DNA of 64,000 bases from positions 6,469-70,468 of the forward strand of contig JAZNYH010000078.1 of NCBI GenBank assembly GCA_045594305.1, in the 5' to 3' direction. Source of the stretch: Eubacteriales bacterium (GTDB lineage: Bacteria > Bacillota > Clostridia > Oscillospirales > CAG-272). The notes below the pieces were generated by a model, which saw only the letters and a list, made by a program, of their open reading frames with translations, searched no databases and was not told the DNA's origin. A program made the translations under genes and the position numbers. Positions within the stretch are counted from its first letter, which is position 1, and each line of letters starts with the position of its first letter. This document shows positions 5,670 through 44,710 of this stretch, piece after piece.

Positions 5670-6968
5670 ATGAGAATAGCACTCGATGGACCAAGTGGAG
5701 CAGGAAAAAGCACAGTTGCAAAGGCTGTGGCAAAAAGACTTGGTATAGTTTATGTTGACACAGGCGCACTCTATCGCTCAATAGGACTTTATGTTCAAAG
5801 AAAGGGCGTGGGCAAGGATGAAAGTGAAAAGGTTATTGCAATGCTCGATGAGATAAAGCTTGACCTTAAATTCAACGACGGAGTACAAAGCGTTTTGCTT
5901 AATGGCGAGGATGTCGGTGGATTTATCCGTACAGGCGAAATATCAATGTACGCCTCTGCCGTATCAGCAATTCCTGAGGTTAGAGCGTTTTTGCTTGAAA
6001 CTCAGAGAAAAATCGCAAGAGAAAACAGCGTTATTATGGACGGACGAGATATCGGCACCGTTATAATTCCCGACGCTGAGGTTAAGATTTTCCTTGTTGC
6101 CTCACCCGAGGCAAGAGCGCAAAGACGCTATAAGGAGCTTATCGAAAAGGGCGAGGATTGCACATACGAGAGCGTGCTTGCAGATATTAAGGAGCGTGAC
6201 AATAACGACTCTACAAGAGCAGTTGCTCCCGCTGTTCCTGCAAAGGACGCAATATTCCTTGATAACTCCGACCTTGATCAGGAGCAAACAATTGACAAGG
6301 TTATTGAAATAATCGAAAAAACAGTAAAAAAAAAGCCTAAAAAGCCAAACATCTTTTACCGAGTAACAAAATTCCTCTTTGGAAAAATAGTTGGATTTTT
6401 TCTCGGCGTAAGAGTGAAAAATAAAGATAAAGAGGTCTTTGATAAGCCATTTATCCTTTGTGCAAACCATACAAGCCTTCTTGATGCGGTTGTAATAGTT
6501 ATTGCTATGAAAAACCAAATCCGTTATATGGGCAAGAAGGAGGTATTCAAAATCCCTATTTTGAGTTGGTTTATAAGATCAATGGGTGCTTTCCCGGTTG
6601 ACCGTAAAAATGGCGATGTTGGAGCAATAAAGAAGACACTTGAAATCTTAAAGGGTGGAGAGTGTGTTGGAATATTCCCACAGGGCACACGCCGTCCATA
6701 CCAAAACCCAAGAGAAACAGAGGTTAAGGACGGAATTGGAATGATGGCTCATCGTGCAGGGGTTGGAATTGTACCTGTCTATATCAAGAACAAAAAGGGC
6801 AAGGTTAAGTGGTTCCACAAGAACACAGTAATAATTGGCGATTATATCTCGCCCGAGGAAATTTCCTTCCCCGAGCTTAATGGTCGTGAGAAATACAAGG
6901 CTATTGCCGAGTATGCCTTTGATAAGGTGTGCGAAATTGGCGAGAGCTGGGAGGGCAAAAAATGTTAA
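5670..6968 (+). CDS. cmk: Cytidylate kinase fused to 1-acyl-sn-glycerol-3-phosphate acyltransferase (Cmk-PlsC fusion)
   Basis: N-terminus: P-loop DGPSGAGKST, YRS, DGRDIGTVI (Cmk). C-terminus: NHTSLLD (HX4D) and FPQGTRR (LPLAT/PlsC) after a hydrophobic helix. The halves are joined by KKKPKKP, encoded across an A9 run. Confidence 0.85.
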   Translation: MRIALDGPSGAGKSTVAKAVAKRLGIVYVDTGALYRSIGLYVQRKGVGKDESEKVIAMLDEIKLDLKFNDGVQSVLLNGEDVGGFIRTGEISMYASAVSAIPEVRAFLLETQRKIARENSVIMDGRDIGTVIIPDAEVKIFLVASPEARAQRRYKELIEKGEDCTYESVLADIKERDNNDSTRAVAPAVPAKDAIFLDNSDLDQEQTIDKVIEIIEKTVKKKPKKPNIFYRVTKFLFGKIVGFFLGVRVKNKDKEVFDKPFILCANHTSLLDAVVIVIAMKNQIRYMGKKEVFKIPILSWFIRSMGAFPVDRKNGDVGAIKKTLEILKGGECVGIFPQGTRRPYQNPRETEVKDGIGMMAHRAGVGIVPVYIKNKKGKVKWFHKNTVIIGDYISPEEISFPELNGREKYKAIAEYAFDKVCEIGESWEGKKC

Positions 6969-19164: not shown

Positions 19165-19385
19165 CTGAAAAATCAGGGTGCAAAATAACACGGTACCACC
19201 TGAATTTGCATATCAAAAATATGCACACTCAAAGTCCTTAACGCAGACCTACGCACAGGCTACTAAGCTCACCCGTGATGCTCCAAAGCTACCTTCATAT
19301 CCCATACCTACCGTCTCACACCAGCCACGGCTCTCTTTAAGGAAGAGGGGATACTACTCCTCTTTTTCAACGCATTAAATTAGTA
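19165..19385 (-). promoter_or_regulatory. T-box riboswitch leader of valS
   Basis: Minus strand shows AGAGAG and TGGTGTGAGA stem I elements, the T-box sequence AATTCAGGTGGTACCGTG (about 19207-19190), and a terminator CACCCTGA..TCAGGGTG + T-run (about 19180-19157). GUA (Val) lies in the candidate specifier region GAAGGUAGC. Confidence 0.85.
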
Positions 19386-37244: not shown

Positions 37245-39263
37245 ATGAAAAGGATTTTTTTGACTCTTGCAATTTCGTTAATGCTACTCTTAACACTTGC
37301 GATTTCCGTATGTGCCGCTGAGTACACGGTTAGTAGTGATGAGGAGTATACCGTTGCCTATGGGCAAGCAACAAGTGGAGACACCATTGTAATTACAAAA
37401 AAGCTAACCTGCGATATTTACGCAAATAAGAGCGTAACCTACATTTTAAAGGCAGATTGGGAAAGCTCTAAGCTTGTTATTGATCAGTCAAATGTAGAGG
37501 TGTCCTTTATCGCAGATGGTGGTAACTACAAAATTATGCCAACAGGCTATTCTACAACCGCAGGCTGGCTAAATATTGCCGATGCGTATACAGGTGTGGT
37601 TATTAATTTGGGTGGCAAAAATGGTGGCACATTGACCATTGATGGCTCAAATGCAACTCACGACAGAGTTAGCTATGTAACAGCATCTGCCAATATTTGC
37701 TTGAATTTGCTAAGTGGCTCTGCTATTGCTAATTTCAATCCTGTAACCAAGGATGATAGCGAGAATGTATGTATAATTTACGCACAAACGGTTAATATGT
37801 ATGACGGATGTCAAATTTATGCCAATAAGATAATAAGTGCTCCACTTATTAAAACAAGCAATTTTAATTTGTTTGGTGGCGAGATTTTCGGTAATCTACT
37901 TACAAGCACAAGAACAAAGGTAAATGGCGTAGGTGCAATCTATGCATCAAATCAATTTGCAATGTATGGCGGTAAGCTATATGGTAATATCTTTAATGCA
38001 ACAGGTGGACTTGGTGGAGTTATTAATGCAGTAGGCTTTATTTCAACAAGATATGGCTATTATGGTGCAAAGATGGTTGTATTAGATGGTGAGATAGGCG
38101 ATAACTATGTAAGCGGAAATAGCACAAGCGAGATAGGCTCTATGTTTGGTCTTAATACAACCGAAAATGCCACAAGCTATTTCTATTATAATACAGCAGT
38201 AAAGGGAACAAGATATAAATTTACAGATACGCCCGCTCTTTCACTTGATGAGAAAACAGGAAAAACCATATGGCAGGTAAAGGAATACACTCTTTTGTCA
38301 TCGGATTGGTTTGGCTGGTGCTGGAAGCAAACAAAGGTATCAGGCGATAAGGTAGCTATATTCCTTAACGCACAAAAGAAGGCTATTGCAGGAAACAATT
38401 TTGATACATATACAGTGATCAACGCATACATTGATGGCGTTTATTCTTATTCTGGCTCAACTACAATTGCAATGCCAAGTGGCTATACACTTTGGTCAAC
38501 AGATAGCACTAAGTATTGCCATACAGGAAGGGCATACACTCTTGATGAGGTTAAGGCATCACAAGTTATCACGCTTTACTCAGCATATAATGCCGAAAGA
38601 GTAACAATCGACGGAATAACAAGATGCTCGGGCTGTCAAATGCGATATACCTGTAACGATCCTGAGCACGATTTGCAAGCGGTTTCTGTTTCTTATGATG
38701 ACTACACAAAGGATGGCGTAAAGGTGTTAAAATGTAATACCTGTGGCTTGGAAAAGGCAACTGAGGTTTCCGTTCCACCTATCTTCACCTGCCTTGGCTA
38801 TTCAGTAGGACCTGACGGCTATTCACTTAAAGCAGGCTTTAAGATTGATATTGATGCCATAAAGGAATACAAGGAATTTAATCCAGCATTTAGCTTTGGC
38901 GTAGTAGTAGCAAACGCAAATACCGTAGAATCAAAGGAGGCATTCTTTGTAAACGGCTTGATTAATTCAAGCGCAAAGGGCGTTATGATAGGCGTCGAGG
39001 ACCTGAAATACGGAATTTTAAATGTAGATATTGGTGGCTTTAATGCGAGCATTTCCGACTCACTTGAGCTTGTAGTAGGTGTTTATGCAAGCAATGGAGA
39101 TGATGAAATAAGTATGATTCAGTATGAGGATTCAAGCAAGTATGCAACCATAAAGACATATAGCGACAGAAGCCTCAACGCAGTCACCTTTAATCAGGTT
39201 AGGGTAGGACATGGTATGAACGCCCTCGTTCCACAATCAGCCCCCGTCAGCAACGAGGAATAA
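37245..39263 (+). CDS. Secreted protein with beta-helix-like repeats and a C-terminal Cys-knuckle + beta-rich module
   Basis: Signal peptide (LLLTLAISVCAAE). Repeated x(Y/F)GGxI(F/Y)GN turns (LFGGEIFGN, MYGGKLYGN, LDGEIGDN). CSGC..KCNTCG followed by a domain also present in 44854-45963. Confidence 0.5.
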   Translation: MKRIFLTLAISLMLLLTLAISVCAAEYTVSSDEEYTVAYGQATSGDTIVITKKLTCDIYANKSVTYILKADWESSKLVIDQSNVEVSFIADGGNYKIMPTGYSTTAGWLNIADAYTGVVINLGGKNGGTLTIDGSNATHDRVSYVTASANICLNLLSGSAIANFNPVTKDDSENVCIIYAQTVNMYDGCQIYANKIISAPLIKTSNFNLFGGEIFGNLLTSTRTKVNGVGAIYASNQFAMYGGKLYGNIFNATGGLGGVINAVGFISTRYGYYGAKMVVLDGEIGDNYVSGNSTSEIGSMFGLNTTENATSYFYYNTAVKGTRYKFTDTPALSLDEKTGKTIWQVKEYTLLSSDWFGWCWKQTKVSGDKVAIFLNAQKKAIAGNNFDTYTVINAYIDGVYSYSGSTTIAMPSGYTLWSTDSTKYCHTGRAYTLDEVKASQVITLYSAYNAERVTIDGITRCSGCQMRYTCNDPEHDLQAVSVSYDDYTKDGVKVLKCNTCGLEKATEVSVPPIFTCLGYSVGPDGYSLKAGFKIDIDAIKEYKEFNPAFSFGVVVANANTVESKEAFFVNGLINSSAKGVMIGVEDLKYGILNVDIGGFNASISDSLELVVGVYASNGDDEISMIQYEDSSKYATIKTYSDRSLNAVTFNQVRVGHGMNALVPQSAPVSNEE

Positions 39264-39270
39264 TTAATAC

Positions 39271-39299
39271 AAAAGGACACTCAACTGAGTGCCCTTTTC
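39271..39299 (+). terminator. Rho-independent terminator
   Basis: GGACACTC / GAGTGCCC stem + TTTT (39275-39298). Confidence 0.7.
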
Positions 39300-39413
39300 G
39301 TTTTGCTGGTGAGCCAAGGGCAATGTAAATCGAAAAATTTATATGTTGTATATTGAAATGCGTTATTTAAAGTGGTATAATGTAATTGCAAAATCTAATT
39401 TAGGGGAAAAGTG

Positions 39414-40142
39414 ATGAAAAAAGGATTTTTATTGATTTCTTTAATTGTATCTGCTATTCTCGTATTTTCATCTTGTAATACAGCAAAGCAAATAAAAGAA
39501 TATTTAGAACCAATTGAACACAACGAAAATATGGTTTTTGCTGATGACCATTATGTATATTTTCACAATAATAAAATTGAACATGATGTGAAAATGAATG
39601 TAGAACACATTACAAGACAAGATATATATTACTCGACAGTCGAAAAAGAAAATGTTTTAATTACAAAATATGATATCAATGTGAAAGAAACCACGAATGT
39701 TATTTCCTTTGAGGGCGATAAAAACAGCATCGAATTTTACAATGACTGGATTAAATATGATACATCTAACGGAAGTAAATTATTCTCTTTGAAAGAACTT
39801 AGGGAGTATGATTACAATAATGAGCTTATTCAAAAAGAAAACTCTATTTATACATACATTGATGGAAATATAGTAAATAATTCAACTAATGAAAAAAAGA
39901 AAATTGAATTTAATGATTCATCAAAAATTTATAATACAGCGGAAGCTGAACATTTGAAGCAACTCGGCGCATCATTTAACTTGGAATTTGTTAAGATTTA
40001 TAGAGAAAAAATATATGTAGTTGTTGGGAACGATTATTTTATAGATACAGTTTACTTGTATGACTTTGAAACAGAGGAGTTCACATATTTAGATTGGAAC
40101 GAAAACACAAACGGAAGTGTAAACTTGTTTGTGTTAGAATAG
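39414..40142 (+). CDS. Hypothetical lipoprotein, strongly AT-rich gene
   Basis: Signal/lipobox-like LVFSSC. N/K/E/Y-rich sequence with no recognisable domain. Own promoter (TTGAAA-17-TGgTATAAT at about 39352-39381) and own terminator. Confidence 0.55.
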   Translation: MKKGFLLISLIVSAILVFSSCNTAKQIKEYLEPIEHNENMVFADDHYVYFHNNKIEHDVKMNVEHITRQDIYYSTVEKENVLITKYDINVKETTNVISFEGDKNSIEFYNDWIKYDTSNGSKLFSLKELREYDYNNELIQKENSIYTYIDGNIVNNSTNEKKKIEFNDSSKIYNTAEAEHLKQLGASFNLEFVKIYREKIYVVVGNDYFIDTVYLYDFETEEFTYLDWNENTNGSVNLFVLE

Positions 40143-40202
40143 GAGCTTTTTGTTTTTCAATGAAATTATAAGTTTTTAATGGCACTATGATTGTAAATAA
40201 CG

Positions 40203-40245
40203 AAAAAGCAAGGTTGAAAAGTCAACCTTGCTTTGATTTATTTTC
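40203..40245. terminator. Terminator hairpin (usable on both strands)
   Basis: GCAAGGTTGA (40208-40217) / TCAACCTTGC (40222-40231), with A5 upstream and a T-rich run downstream. Confidence 0.75.
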
Positions 40246-40277
40246 GATTGTAATGCAGAAGCTTGTAAGAAATTAGT

Positions 40278-40391
40278 GCCCCGTACTTTTGCAGGGCAAA
40301 AGCAAGCGGGAAGGCTCGCTATGCGAGCATTTGTTGCGAACCCGACTCGCACAGGTGCGAGAATGGGTTCGATGAGCGTACGGAGTCGCCA
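40278..40391 (+). ncRNA. tRNA-Glu-derived tRNA-like structured element (pseudo-tRNA or novel ncRNA)
   Basis: 40363-40391 AATGGGTTCGATGAGCGTACGGAGTCGCCA matches the T-arm/acceptor/CCA end of the adjacent tRNA-Glu (ATGGGTTCGAT and CGTACGG are identical). 5' GCCCCGT compares with GGCCCGT, and CAAGCGG is a D-loop-like match. The sequence folds as a closing stem plus four hairpins. It lies on the strand opposite the real tRNA and is bracketed by terminators. Confidence 0.45.
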
Positions 40392-40401
40392 AAAGAAAAA
40401 C

Positions 40402-40436
40402 AAAAAAAGACACCGAATTGGTGTCTTTCTTGTTTT
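40402..40436. terminator. Bidirectional terminator (ends the tRNA operon on minus; could end the tRNA-like element on plus)
   Basis: AAAGACACC (40406-40414) / GGTGTCTTT (40420-40428), with A7 before and a T-rich run after. Confidence 0.75.
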
Positions 40437-40511
40437 TGGTGACCCGTACGGGAATCGAACCCATGTTTCAACCTTGAGAGGGTCGCGTCTTAGCCGCTTG
40501 ACCAACGGGCC
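40437..40511 (-). tRNA. tRNA-Glu (anticodon CUC), CCA encoded
   Basis: Minus strand GGCCCGTTGGTCAAGCGGCTAAGACGCGACCCTCTCAAGGTTGAAACATGGGTTCGATTCCCGTACGGGTCACCA. Cloverleaf with anticodon loop CUCUCAA. Confidence 0.92.
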
Positions 40512-40514
40512 GAA

Positions 40515-40590
40515 TGGTGGCGAAAATGGGATTTGAACCTATGACCTGCCGGGTATGAACCGGATGCTCTAGCCACTGAGCTATTTCGCC
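40515..40590 (-). tRNA. tRNA-Met, elongator-type (anticodon CAU), CCA encoded
   Basis: Minus strand GGCGAAATAGCTCAGTGGCTAGAGCATCCGGTTCATACCCGGCAGGTCATAGGTTCAAATCCCATTTTCGCCACCA. The anticodon loop UUCAUAC resembles elongator Met rather than initiator or Ile2. One A-C mismatch in the T stem. Confidence 0.85.
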
Positions 40591-43119: not shown

Positions 43120-43376
43120 ATAAGACAAACCGATGAGAAAGAATAGTAGCATAGCAGGCGATGTCAAAGAGAGATGCAGACGGTGAGATTGCATTACAAA
43201 GTGGCTTTGTGAATGGGCTTTCGAGGGCAGGGCTGAACCAAGTAGGTCTTGACGGATATGCACCGTTACAGGCATAGCATATTATAATGTATGTGAAAGA
43301 GATAAGAGAAATCTTAAATTTGGGTGGCACCACGGTTTATTCGTCCCAAGCATCGCAAGATGCTTGGGCTTTTTTA
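43120..43376 (+). promoter_or_regulatory. T-box riboswitch, Trp specifier
   Basis: AGAGAG + GGTGAGA stem I elements, GAAUGGG with UGG at 43214-43216, T-box AAATTTGGGTGGCACCACGG (about 43316-43335), terminator CCCAAGCATC/GATGCTTGGG (43345-43368) + T6. Confidence 0.88.
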
Positions 43377-43489: not shown

Positions 43490-44710
43490 ATGAAATTTAA
43501 CGGAATTGATTTTGATACTTATTTTAACAACTATCCTGACAAAAACGGATATTTTGGAAAATACGGTGGAGTTTACATTGATGATAAGCTCAAAAACGCA
43601 ATGGCAGAGATTACCGAGGCTTATTACTCAATCTGCCAATCAAGAAAGTTCATTGCAGAGCTTAGAAGAATAAGAAAGGAATTTCAAGGCAGACCAACCC
43701 CAATAACTCACCTTGAAAGGCTCTCGGACTCTCTCGGTGGCAAGGTTCAGCTTTACGCAAAGCGTGAGGACCTTAACCACTCAGGCGCACACAAGCTCAA
43801 CCACTGTATGGGCGAGGCACTTTTGGCAAAGTATATGGGCAAGAAAAAGGTTATCGCTGAAACAGGAGCTGGTCAGCACGGCGTTGCTCTTGCTACTGCC
43901 GCAGCATACTTTGGACTAAAATGCGATATTTATATGGGCTCTGTTGACATAAAGAAGCAGGCTCCTAATGTAGCAAGAATGAAGATACTCGGTGCTAATG
44001 TTATTGAGGTAACACACGGACTTCAAACCCTTAAAGAGGCAGTTGATGCAGCCTTTGACGCATACAGTAAGGAATATAACGACGCAATTTATTGCATAGG
44101 CTCAGTTCTTGGCCCACACCCATTCCCAATGATGGTTCGTGACTTCCAAAGCGTTGTAGGAATTGAGGCAAGGGAGCAGTTTATCGAAATGACAGGTAAC
44201 CTACCAACCTCTATCGTAGCATGCGTAGGTGGTGGCTCAAACGCAGCAGGACTTTTCGCAGGCTTTCTAAACGATCCTGTTGACATTTACGGCATTGAGC
44301 CTCTTGGTAGAGGACCAAAGCTTGGCGACCACGCTGCAAGCCTTAAATACGGCACAGAGGGCATTATGCACGGCTTTAACAGTATTATGTTGAAGGACGA
44401 AAATGGCGATCCTGCACCTGTATATTCAGTTGCAAGTGGACTTGATTACCCATCATCAGGACCAGAGCACGCATTCCTTCAAGAGATAGGCAGAGTTAAG
44501 TACGATGTAATCGACGATGAGGAAACAATCGATGCCTTCTATAAGCTATCACGCCTTGAAGGTATAATTCCCGCTATCGAAAGCTCACACGCAGTTGCAT
44601 ATGGTATGAAGCTTGCAAAGACAATGGATCACGGCTCCGTTCTTATCAACCTCTCAGGCAGAGGCGATAAGGATATGGACTACATAATCGAAAACTACGG
44701 AATACGCTAA
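43490..44710 (+). CDS. trpB: Tryptophan synthase beta chain (stand-alone)
   Basis: PLP-lysine motif [23 protein letters not shown]. No trpA or other trp genes nearby. Confidence 0.9.

Follow-up and report, generated by a model that had tools for sequence, protein, structure and literature searches.

A shortened copy of a repeated, folded module at the 3' end of tRNA-Glu, and a family of candidate cassette ends in uncultured gut Clostridia

What is a short piece of DNA that resembles the end of a tRNA gene, lies on the opposite strand directly beside the genuine gene and is not itself a tRNA? The question is raised by a 64,000-nucleotide stretch (the window; all coordinates without a locus name refer to it) of contig JAZNYH010000078.1 from the Eubacteriales bacterium assembly GCA_045594305.1, in which such an element converges on tRNA-Glu(CTC). 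An earlier note, made from the sequence alone, had described positions 40278-40391 as a singular tRNA-Glu-derived unit that folds into five helices (P1 to P5) and could be an independent transcript. Here we report that the element, which properly spans 40273-40391, is a shortened copy of a repeated, modular family associated with tRNA ends. Whether this family constitutes the folded right (tRNA-proximal) end module of small integrase-less cassettes that accrete at tRNA 3' ends in uncultured gut Clostridia is, in our judgement, evenly balanced, and this is the reading that we favour over all others. The structured, tRNA-mimicking end module is what is new here; tRNA-targeted, integrase-less integrative units are already known.

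The note's coordinates and sequences proved correct, and the derivation of the element's ends from tRNA-Glu is borne out. The tRNA is represented by its 3' third alone, once as a direct and once as an inverted copy. The inverted copy, the R arm (40362-40391, plus strand), is an imperfect version of the T-loop and the acceptor 3' strand and takes part in a 38-nt inverted repeat, 71% complementary, between 40363-40400 and 40427-40464, in which the blocks ATGGGTTCGAT and CGTACGG are identical. The direct copy is the L arm, TTAGTGCCCCGTAC (40273-40286, plus strand), which agrees at 12 of 14 positions with TTGGTGACCCGTAC, the complement of the tRNA-Glu 3' end at 40436-40449. GCCCCGT, previously taken for a tRNA 5' acceptor strand, is better read as part of this direct repeat. 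It is an att-type direct repeat, of the kind that integrase-mediated insertion leaves and that the note had excluded in favour of an inverted copy; both kinds of repeat are present. The proposed D-loop match of CAAGCGG is real, but the family described below shows that CAAGC belongs to an optional insertion with P2, whereas GGGAA (within GGGAAG, 40308-40313) matches the T-stem complement of the tRNA. That the element is no canonical tRNA was rightly recognised: ARAGORN calls only tRNA-Glu and tRNA-Met in the region and no tmRNA, and Rfam 15 gives no match on 40278-40391 even at E<=10, nor anything credible at that threshold for a 330-nt family copy (L007). Canonical tRNA, relaxed tRNA and tmRNA identities were ruled out on these negatives.

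The family emerged from a core motif, GGYTTTNGYCRRAAATGCGMACCC, derived from the core common to longer versions of the element at four loci (L007, L012, L013 and L015) and searched in a collection of species-representative genomes. It matched 46 times in 41 contigs, with 45 of the matches in 30 metagenome-assembled genomes (MAGs) of uncultured Clostridia, Eubacteriales or Oscillospiraceae from animal guts, where several copies per genome are common; the match in a Thermomicrobiaceae MAG (L026 1831-1854) is a chance hit in coding sequence and was discarded. A hidden Markov model of the core, run over the matched contigs, delineates about 55 distinct copies. About two thirds of the copies have a tRNA called by ARAGORN on the other strand, and the neighbouring 3' ends belong in most copies to tRNA-Glu(CTC or TTC), tRNA-Arg(CCT) or tRNA-Met. 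The motif is absent from IMG/VR viral contigs, blastn with a full family copy finds nothing among INPHARED phages or PLSDB plasmids, and a full-text literature search found no description of the family, which is apparently undescribed so far.

Read along the plus strand, a family copy begins with the L arm, which repeats, in the orientation of the adjacent tRNA gene, the complement of its 3' end, followed by either four to five bases or the P2 hairpin with CAAGC, then GGGAAG and P3. There follow a paired arm of about 50 nt (with an extra hairpin in some copies), the core GCGAACCC, which occurs as (A)TGCGAACCCAA and resembles the tRNA complement AATCGAACCCA, then P5 and the R arm. Then come a terminator hairpin between an A-rich and a T-rich run and, finally, the tRNA 3' end itself, read as TGGTGA for tRNA-Glu, TGGCAC for tRNA-Arg and TGGTGG for tRNA-Met. 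This junction lies 77-102 nt past the core in 38 of 48 listed copies, and farther out in 6 because another module has been inserted. The window copy aligns throughout save for a clean 44-nt deletion of the arm (between ATTTGT and TGCGAACCC). Downstream of its L arm, all on the plus strand, lie the optional insertion (40287-40313, comprising the P2 hairpin at 40287-40301, GCAAGC and GGGAAG), the P3 hairpin GCTCGC-tat-GCGAGC (40314-40328), an ATTTGTT scar in place of the arm (40329-40335), the conserved core GCGAACCCGA with the 5' strand of P4 (40336-40345) and the P5 tip hairpin CTCGCA-cagg-TGCGAG (40346-40361). The copy is also a mosaic, with a P5 identical to that of L028 and an R arm and terminator equal to those of L042 and L012. 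A single JGI metagenome scan for other arm-less copies returned one chance match in GC-rich coding DNA (L060 47-86). A second, paralogous module has a like layout (GTACGGGAAG, one long hairpin, AATGCGTTCCCAA, a hairpin and an inverted tRNA-like end) and is often stacked in tandem with the main type; it occurs at L007 2010-2135 and L057 3526-3620 as well as in L022, L024, L033 and L056.

With this, the note's fallback, a single dead and rearranged tRNA-Glu copy, is contradicted. Similarity to tRNA-Glu at both ends speaks for it; however, the two tRNA-like segments, one direct and one inverted, both represent no more than the 3' third, and the middle of the element is homologous to some 55 copies, several of them beside tRNA-Arg and tRNA-Met. 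We consider it exceedingly improbable.

How the element folds bears on what it might do. It is better folded than shuffled sequences as RNA (z of -3.4 on the plus and -4.7 on the minus strand) and as DNA (-4.9 and -5.2 for the two strands), and the minimum free energies of both strands are nearly equal. The predicted helices P2, P3 and P4/P5 (40337-40371) are found in the minimum-energy folds of RNA and DNA alike, but P1, which was to close the structure, is missing from the plus-strand fold and appears only in the minus-strand RNA fold. The strongest structure of the region is a different one, a 111-nt hairpin at 40358-40468 (DNA z -9.5) in which the R arm pairs with the real tRNA-Glu 3' third across the hairpin T1. 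T1 (40392-40436; an A-rich run, a hairpin at 40403-40431 and a T-rich run, with a terminator-like score on both strands) serves the tRNA operon as its bidirectional terminator and lies at the centre of a long palindrome. The palindrome contains a 3-nt bubble and single bulges; the mismatch bubble at the T-stem 3' strand (TCC vs GAG) recurs in Glu copies, and the tRNA-matching segments are paired with each other, not exposed in open loops. The L and R arms can also pair mutually, so that the R arm has two partners, the L arm and the tRNA end across the terminator.

Comparison of the copies shows that intrastrand pairing is conserved. Across 26 distinct sequences of the paired arm, 97.6% of cells are paired compared with 35-47% for slid partners, 8 of 19 pairs change on both sides and the covariation score of 0.309 stands against 0.129 in shuffles and was reached by none of 500, although independent events are fewer than the cell counts suggest because the changes fall into few inherited haplotypes. 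P3 occurs in 33 stem/loop variants (for example GCTCC/GGAGC, GTTCAC/GTGAAC and TGCC/GGCA). P5 likewise has 33 variants with at least 12 unrelated stem sequences, and a hairpin is always present at its position; in both helices nearly all pairs are Watson-Crick. P3, P5 and the paired arm therefore carry compensatory changes. P4 (CGAACCC/GGGTTCG) was rejected as a covarying helix: it is full-length only in a subset of copies, shortened or bulged elsewhere and by eye free of compensatory change, and it looks inherited from the T-arm palindrome. The earlier argument that random decay would not produce such a fold is supported by P3, P5 and the family-wide arm.

The terminal arms follow the identity of the adjacent tRNA. 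Among the Glu copies the R arm matches its cognate tRNA best in 13 of 14, and among the Arg copies in 6 of 7; L arms bear the cognate 3' end, as with TTTTGGCACCCCCAACGGGAA, found twice in L052 beside tRNA-Arg, and TGGTGGACCAACAGG in Met copies. Direct repeats recur at the distal boundary, with a length of 21 nt in L052 and about 40 nt in L015, at the distal junction of L013 and, in the window, as the L-arm repeat described above.

The comparison of strains identifies the tRNA 3' end as a recombination breakpoint. On the far side of the tRNA, gene order is kept in relatives (NUDIX, 2-thiouracil desulfurase, HAD and a trpB gene preceded by a T-box). What adjoins the tRNA-Glu 3' end is different in every one, with CBASS in L004, MatE in L005 and L007, a helix–turn–helix (HTH) gene in L013 and further genes in other relatives. 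L004, L005 and L007 share 99% identity over 3.3 kb, after which all similarity ends exactly at TTGGTGA. L058, which belongs to the window's own species (its NUDIX protein is 99% identical), has the breakpoint as at the window's tRNA end and carries a different terminator, without the element and without the lipoprotein-like gene that adjoins it in the window. This strain-variability agrees with the earlier suggestion that the gene sits in acquired DNA. In L013, a unit 1.2 kb away is 94% identical to the tRNA-proximal unit of L004; past CTTGGTGA it runs into GCCAAAGGTAATGTAAATCGAAAAA, a left end that we term class b, at the point where L004 enters the tRNA. The class-b left end follows a hairpin-TGGTGA in nine loci, namely L013, L037, L041, L020, L035, L012, L049, L025 and the window (39307-39337), and there are other recurring left ends (an example of a left-end sequence is GCCAAGGGCAATGTAAATCGAA). 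A census of junctions, defined as a hairpin, a T-rich run and TGGTGA, TGGCAC or TGGTGG, yielded 66 candidate sites, a few of them chance or mirror-strand matches, and downstream of them lies either a real tRNA or one of a handful of recurring left ends. Hairpin-TGGTGA junctions hence recur and bracket cargo. Four junctions (L028 489, L056 1355, L040 3969 and L034 ~4790) run into TGGTGACCCGTAGGCATGTCGAATCCTGCACACTTCC, which is tRNA-end-like for about 12 nt and then divergent and in which ARAGORN calls no gene. L012 has lost the tRNA-Met and tRNA-Glu beside NUDIX and holds one full and one partial copy (1014-1300 and 2290-2412), which lie on the minus strand, the reverse of the orientation seen otherwise, on either side of a methyltransferase gene, which suggests that this locus was rearranged between copies.

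Because the class-b left end after a hairpin-TGGTGA recurs across loci and is found at 39307-39337, the window itself holds one bracketed unit, 39307-40442, made up of left end, promoter, lipoprotein-like open reading frame (ORF), T2, structured module, T1 and TGGTGA. To its left, a terminator-type hairpin (39271-39300) appears to close a preceding unit; blastn matches it to the terminator hairpin and junction of about ten family copies. Next (39307-39337, plus strand) is a solo TGGTGA junction with a class-b left end whose sequence, GCCAAGGGCAATGTAAATCGAAAAA, represents a pseudo tRNA 3' segment, then a promoter-like TTGAAA-17-TATAAT site (39353-39381, plus strand). ATTGAAATGC, which follows the class-b end in the units of the window, L041 and L049, is part of this site in the window. 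The cargo is an ORF of 243 aa (39411-40142, plus strand) between two hairpin-TGGTGA junctions; its lipoprotein-like product has no Pfam match, and no identical protein is on record. From 40162, where blastn homology to family copies begins, to 40272 extends a left module common to P2-bearing copies, consisting of a degenerate upstream block, the hairpin T2 (40205-40234, terminator-like on both strands) and a conserved spacer of about 40 nt; the stretch from 40204 is 87% identical to L007 1733-1864. In L013 (~1905-1935), L046 and L048 the place of T2 is taken by a hairpin module, GGAGACAGGGGACGGTTCyTTGTCTCC. Beyond the unit lie tRNA-Glu(CTC) (40437-40511, minus strand; ARAGORN and Rfam), intact according to ARAGORN, with the junction and breakpoint at its 3' end, TCACCA (plus-strand TGGTGA), tRNA-Met(CAT) (40515-40590, minus strand; ARAGORN) and a consensus promoter TTGACA-17-TATAAT (40636-40608, minus strand) that drives tRNA-Met and then tRNA-Glu.

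On the cassette-end reading, to which we gave an even chance at the outset, a cassette would recombine with the tRNA gene at or near TGGTGA, and the incoming cassette would supply a replacement tRNA 3' end and terminator, so that older units would be displaced outward. In its favour are the placement of the copies, the arms that follow the tRNA, the conserved pairing, the breakpoints at the tRNA end, the accessory cargo, the stability of the hairpin of R arm, T1 and tRNA end, and the insulation of the element by two bidirectional terminators with no sigma-70 promoter between them. The attP site of CTX phage works as a folded structure; by analogy with it and with integron attC sites, the folded palindrome may present a duplex that imitates the target, and it would be the substrate of a recombinase whose gene lies outside the locus. 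This enzyme is hypothetical because no integrase-type gene lies within the 8-kb loci.

A number of observations weigh against this reading, and some of them favour its rivals. Integrase, transposase or reverse transcriptase genes are missing from the 368 ORFs that were clustered, the 40 related-locus neighbours scanned with Pfam and the 8-kb loci. No cassette was found that, with its two junctions in view, is present in one genome and missing from another of the same species, and no excised circle was seen. The R arm is best matched by the cognate tRNA in only 1 of 5 Met copies and is there barely tRNA-like. The L arm may be the footprint of a separate mini-element insertion instead of, as it may equally be, an internal part of the cassette end, and palindrome arms can be kept symmetric by hairpin-templated repair without any function. 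Tandem copies such as those of L030 could have arisen by unequal crossing-over between flanking repeats. In that locus (6036-6300), two nearly identical Met-type copies stand 166 nt apart, and 14 nt of the terminator tail are missing at the inner junction. Finally, the covariation fits RNA and single-stranded DNA equally well. Sporadic G.U against A.C pairs were tried as a guide to the strand and are balanced (8:6 in the arm, 16:16 in P5). A few invariant G.U positions would suit RNA: counted on the plus strand the arm is 97.6% paired, on the minus strand at most about 88%, and the conserved plus-strand pairs are U1.G53, U22.G31 (alternating with G-C) and the closing G.U of P3.

These G.U pairs, conserved on the plus strand only, speak for an alternative that extends the note's proposal to many copies: a family of structured non-coding RNA genes, each giving a plus-strand RNA of about 120-330 nt whose ends mimic the acceptor and T region of the adjacent tRNA. 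One possible role of such an RNA is that of a decoy or regulator of the enzymes acting on this tRNA, another that of an RNA cofactor in cassette recombination. It is further favoured by the strong covariation in the arm, P3 and P5, by folding z-scores of -3.4 to -4.8, by the match of the arms to the cognate tRNA and by the terminator-like hairpins on either side (40205-40234 and 40403-40431), which the earlier note had correctly placed on both strands. The element does sit between two bidirectional terminators. However, in the window, L007 and L044, the copies that were scanned, no sigma-70-type promoter was recognised between these hairpins or, more narrowly, from T2 to the L arm, which makes the independent transcript that the note envisaged doubtful. 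The tmRNA tRNA-like domain and the YrlA Y RNAs are bacterial tRNA-like RNAs, and the element is like them in that pairing of its two ends can form an acceptor-like stem beside the T-loop-like GGGTTCGAT; it differs in having no match to a tRNA or Rfam model, a broken T-stem, no promoter that could be found and a CCA end that is not conserved. The last point also disposes of the CCA-bearing tRNA mimicry proposed earlier, since other copies end in ..CACAAC or ..CAGCAA. Against an RNA gene speak in addition the about equal folding of the two strands, the balance of sporadic G.U and A.C, and the swapping and deletion of whole modules among copies, to the point that the best-conserved arm is missing from the window copy. 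We regard the RNA explanation as unlikely, if still worth keeping in view.

Inert footprints are the other rival that these objections bring up. The family would then consist of displaced tRNA 3' fragments from past island integrations, its palindromes would be by-products of fold-back or template switching at the terminator, and it would have spread by hitch-hiking and unequal crossing-over. Direct repeats of the tRNA end are the expected scars of tRNA-targeted integration (PMC4383910, PMC5704250). The zigzag layout of direct copy, P5, inverted copy, T1 and tRNA, the decayed mosaic copies, among them the arm-less one of the window, and the L030 duplicate with its shortened T1 are likewise what such a history would leave. 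It accounts poorly for a core of non-tRNA origin (P3, the arm and GCGAACCC) that is kept in 30 genomes and beside three tRNA identities with compensatory changes, for the constant spacing from core to junction and for a P5 hairpin that persists despite complete sequence turnover. This explanation, too, seems to us improbable.

The cassette-end reading gains in definition when the family is set against known systems. Islands targeted to tRNA genes leave direct repeats of the tRNA end, and their integrase-less derivatives, the cis-mobilizable elements (CIMEs), form tandem arrays by site-specific accretion (PMC5704250; Islander, PMC4383910). As in both, the tRNA stays intact, its 3' end is repeated at a distance, the content is strain-variable and the breakpoint is at the tRNA 3' end; as in CIMEs, the units lack integrase genes and are stacked with older ones outward. 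Unlike in either, the units are tiny (from 0.15 kb up to a few kb, with no gene, one or two), they carry a conserved, covarying palindromic end module and an extra inverted copy of the tRNA end, and no parent integrative conjugative or mobilizable element or integrase is seen for the family. Tycheposons of Prochlorococcus also have cargo at tRNA genes and partial tRNA flanks, and their repeated integrations displace older elements and leave degenerate remnants (bioRxiv 10.1101/2020.12.28.424599). The family shares with them the cargo at tRNA genes, the partial tRNA flanks, the displaced older units and the degenerate remnants, but tycheposons carry tyrosine recombinases and replication modules, belong to another host phylum and have no structured palindromic end module described.

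Integron cassettes are small, often have a single gene and end in an imperfect palindrome, attC (PMC3053210). The candidate cassettes of the family are likewise small, often with one gene, and end in an imperfect palindrome. Its pairing is preserved despite sequence variation, and a mismatch bubble and unpaired bases interrupt the stem; if the palindrome acts as single-stranded DNA, this stem would mimic a double-stranded target as attC does. Neither of the attC core boxes, RYYYAAC and GTTRRRY, is present on either strand of 40160-40470; the family differs further in having no intI or attI, in arrays that start at tRNA genes, in the own promoter of some cassettes and in cargo that lies in either orientation. 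With REPINs and miniature inverted-repeat transposable elements (MITEs), which are short, non-coding, multi-copy hairpins (PMC3116915), the family shares its copy number, hairpin formation, paired inverted arms and want of an own transposase, but it is confined to tRNA 3' ends or derived junctions instead of being dispersed between genes, and its arms match tRNAs. Lastly, a bridge or seek RNA of the IS110/IS1111 type was considered and rejected: Pfam detects no recombinase-type domain in the 46 neighbouring ORFs scanned, and the tRNA-matching segments are not in open loops.

If the module is active, it marks a hot spot for the exchange of small accessory cassettes among abundant uncultured gut Clostridia, where the genes present include those for CBASS, restriction, capsule, surface leucine-rich repeat (LRR) proteins and glycoside hydrolases and where no unit carries an integrase. 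It would also be a second natural substrate defined by folding and target mimicry, besides integron attC and CTX-type sites. To our knowledge, integrons have not been reported from Firmicutes. A bolder extension, which we offer as speculation and think rather doubtful, is that Clostridia possess an integron-like capture of cassettes on tRNA genes: one- or two-gene cassettes, each ending in a hairpin with a stem that mimics the 3' third of its target tRNA gene, would be added one after another at the CCA end. The insertion would be made by an unlinked recombinase acting on single-stranded DNA or, conceivably, assisted by the module's RNA as a cofactor, and it would build strain-variable arrays for defence, surface and carbohydrate use. 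Should the element prove to be an RNA, it would represent an undescribed multi-copy class whose ends mimic the neighbouring tRNA. In practice, these variable regions can be mapped in metagenomes by a simple signature, GGYTTTNGYCRRAAATGCGMACCC with a hairpin and TGGTGA after it.

The cargo side of the family's loci is varied and includes PGA_cap (three loci), HsdR, a KAP NTPase, BspA-type LRR proteins, glycoside hydrolases and XRE or AraC regulators, with genes in either orientation. In L004 (1-1985), from a strain that shares 99% identity with L005 and L007, the tRNA-Glu site is directly adjoined by a CBASS pair, a SAVED-domain effector followed by a SMODS/DncV-like cyclase. This is a site that therefore also hosts defence genes. 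A family of XRE-type HTH regulators occurs in ten element loci (L013, L020, L029, L037, L040, L041, L048, L049, L053 and L056), and its longest member (L020 4317-5933) is fused to an ADP-ribosylglycohydrolase domain. In the window, immediately left of the solo junction and ahead of the hairpin at 39271-39300, an ORF of 672 aa (37245-39263) has a signal-peptide-like N-terminus and no Pfam match; it may be the cargo of an older unit. Elsewhere in the window two full-length T-box leaders score above the Rfam gathering threshold, one at 19171-19379 on the minus strand and one at 43124-43351 on the plus strand, the latter preceding a trpB-like gene at 43490-44710.

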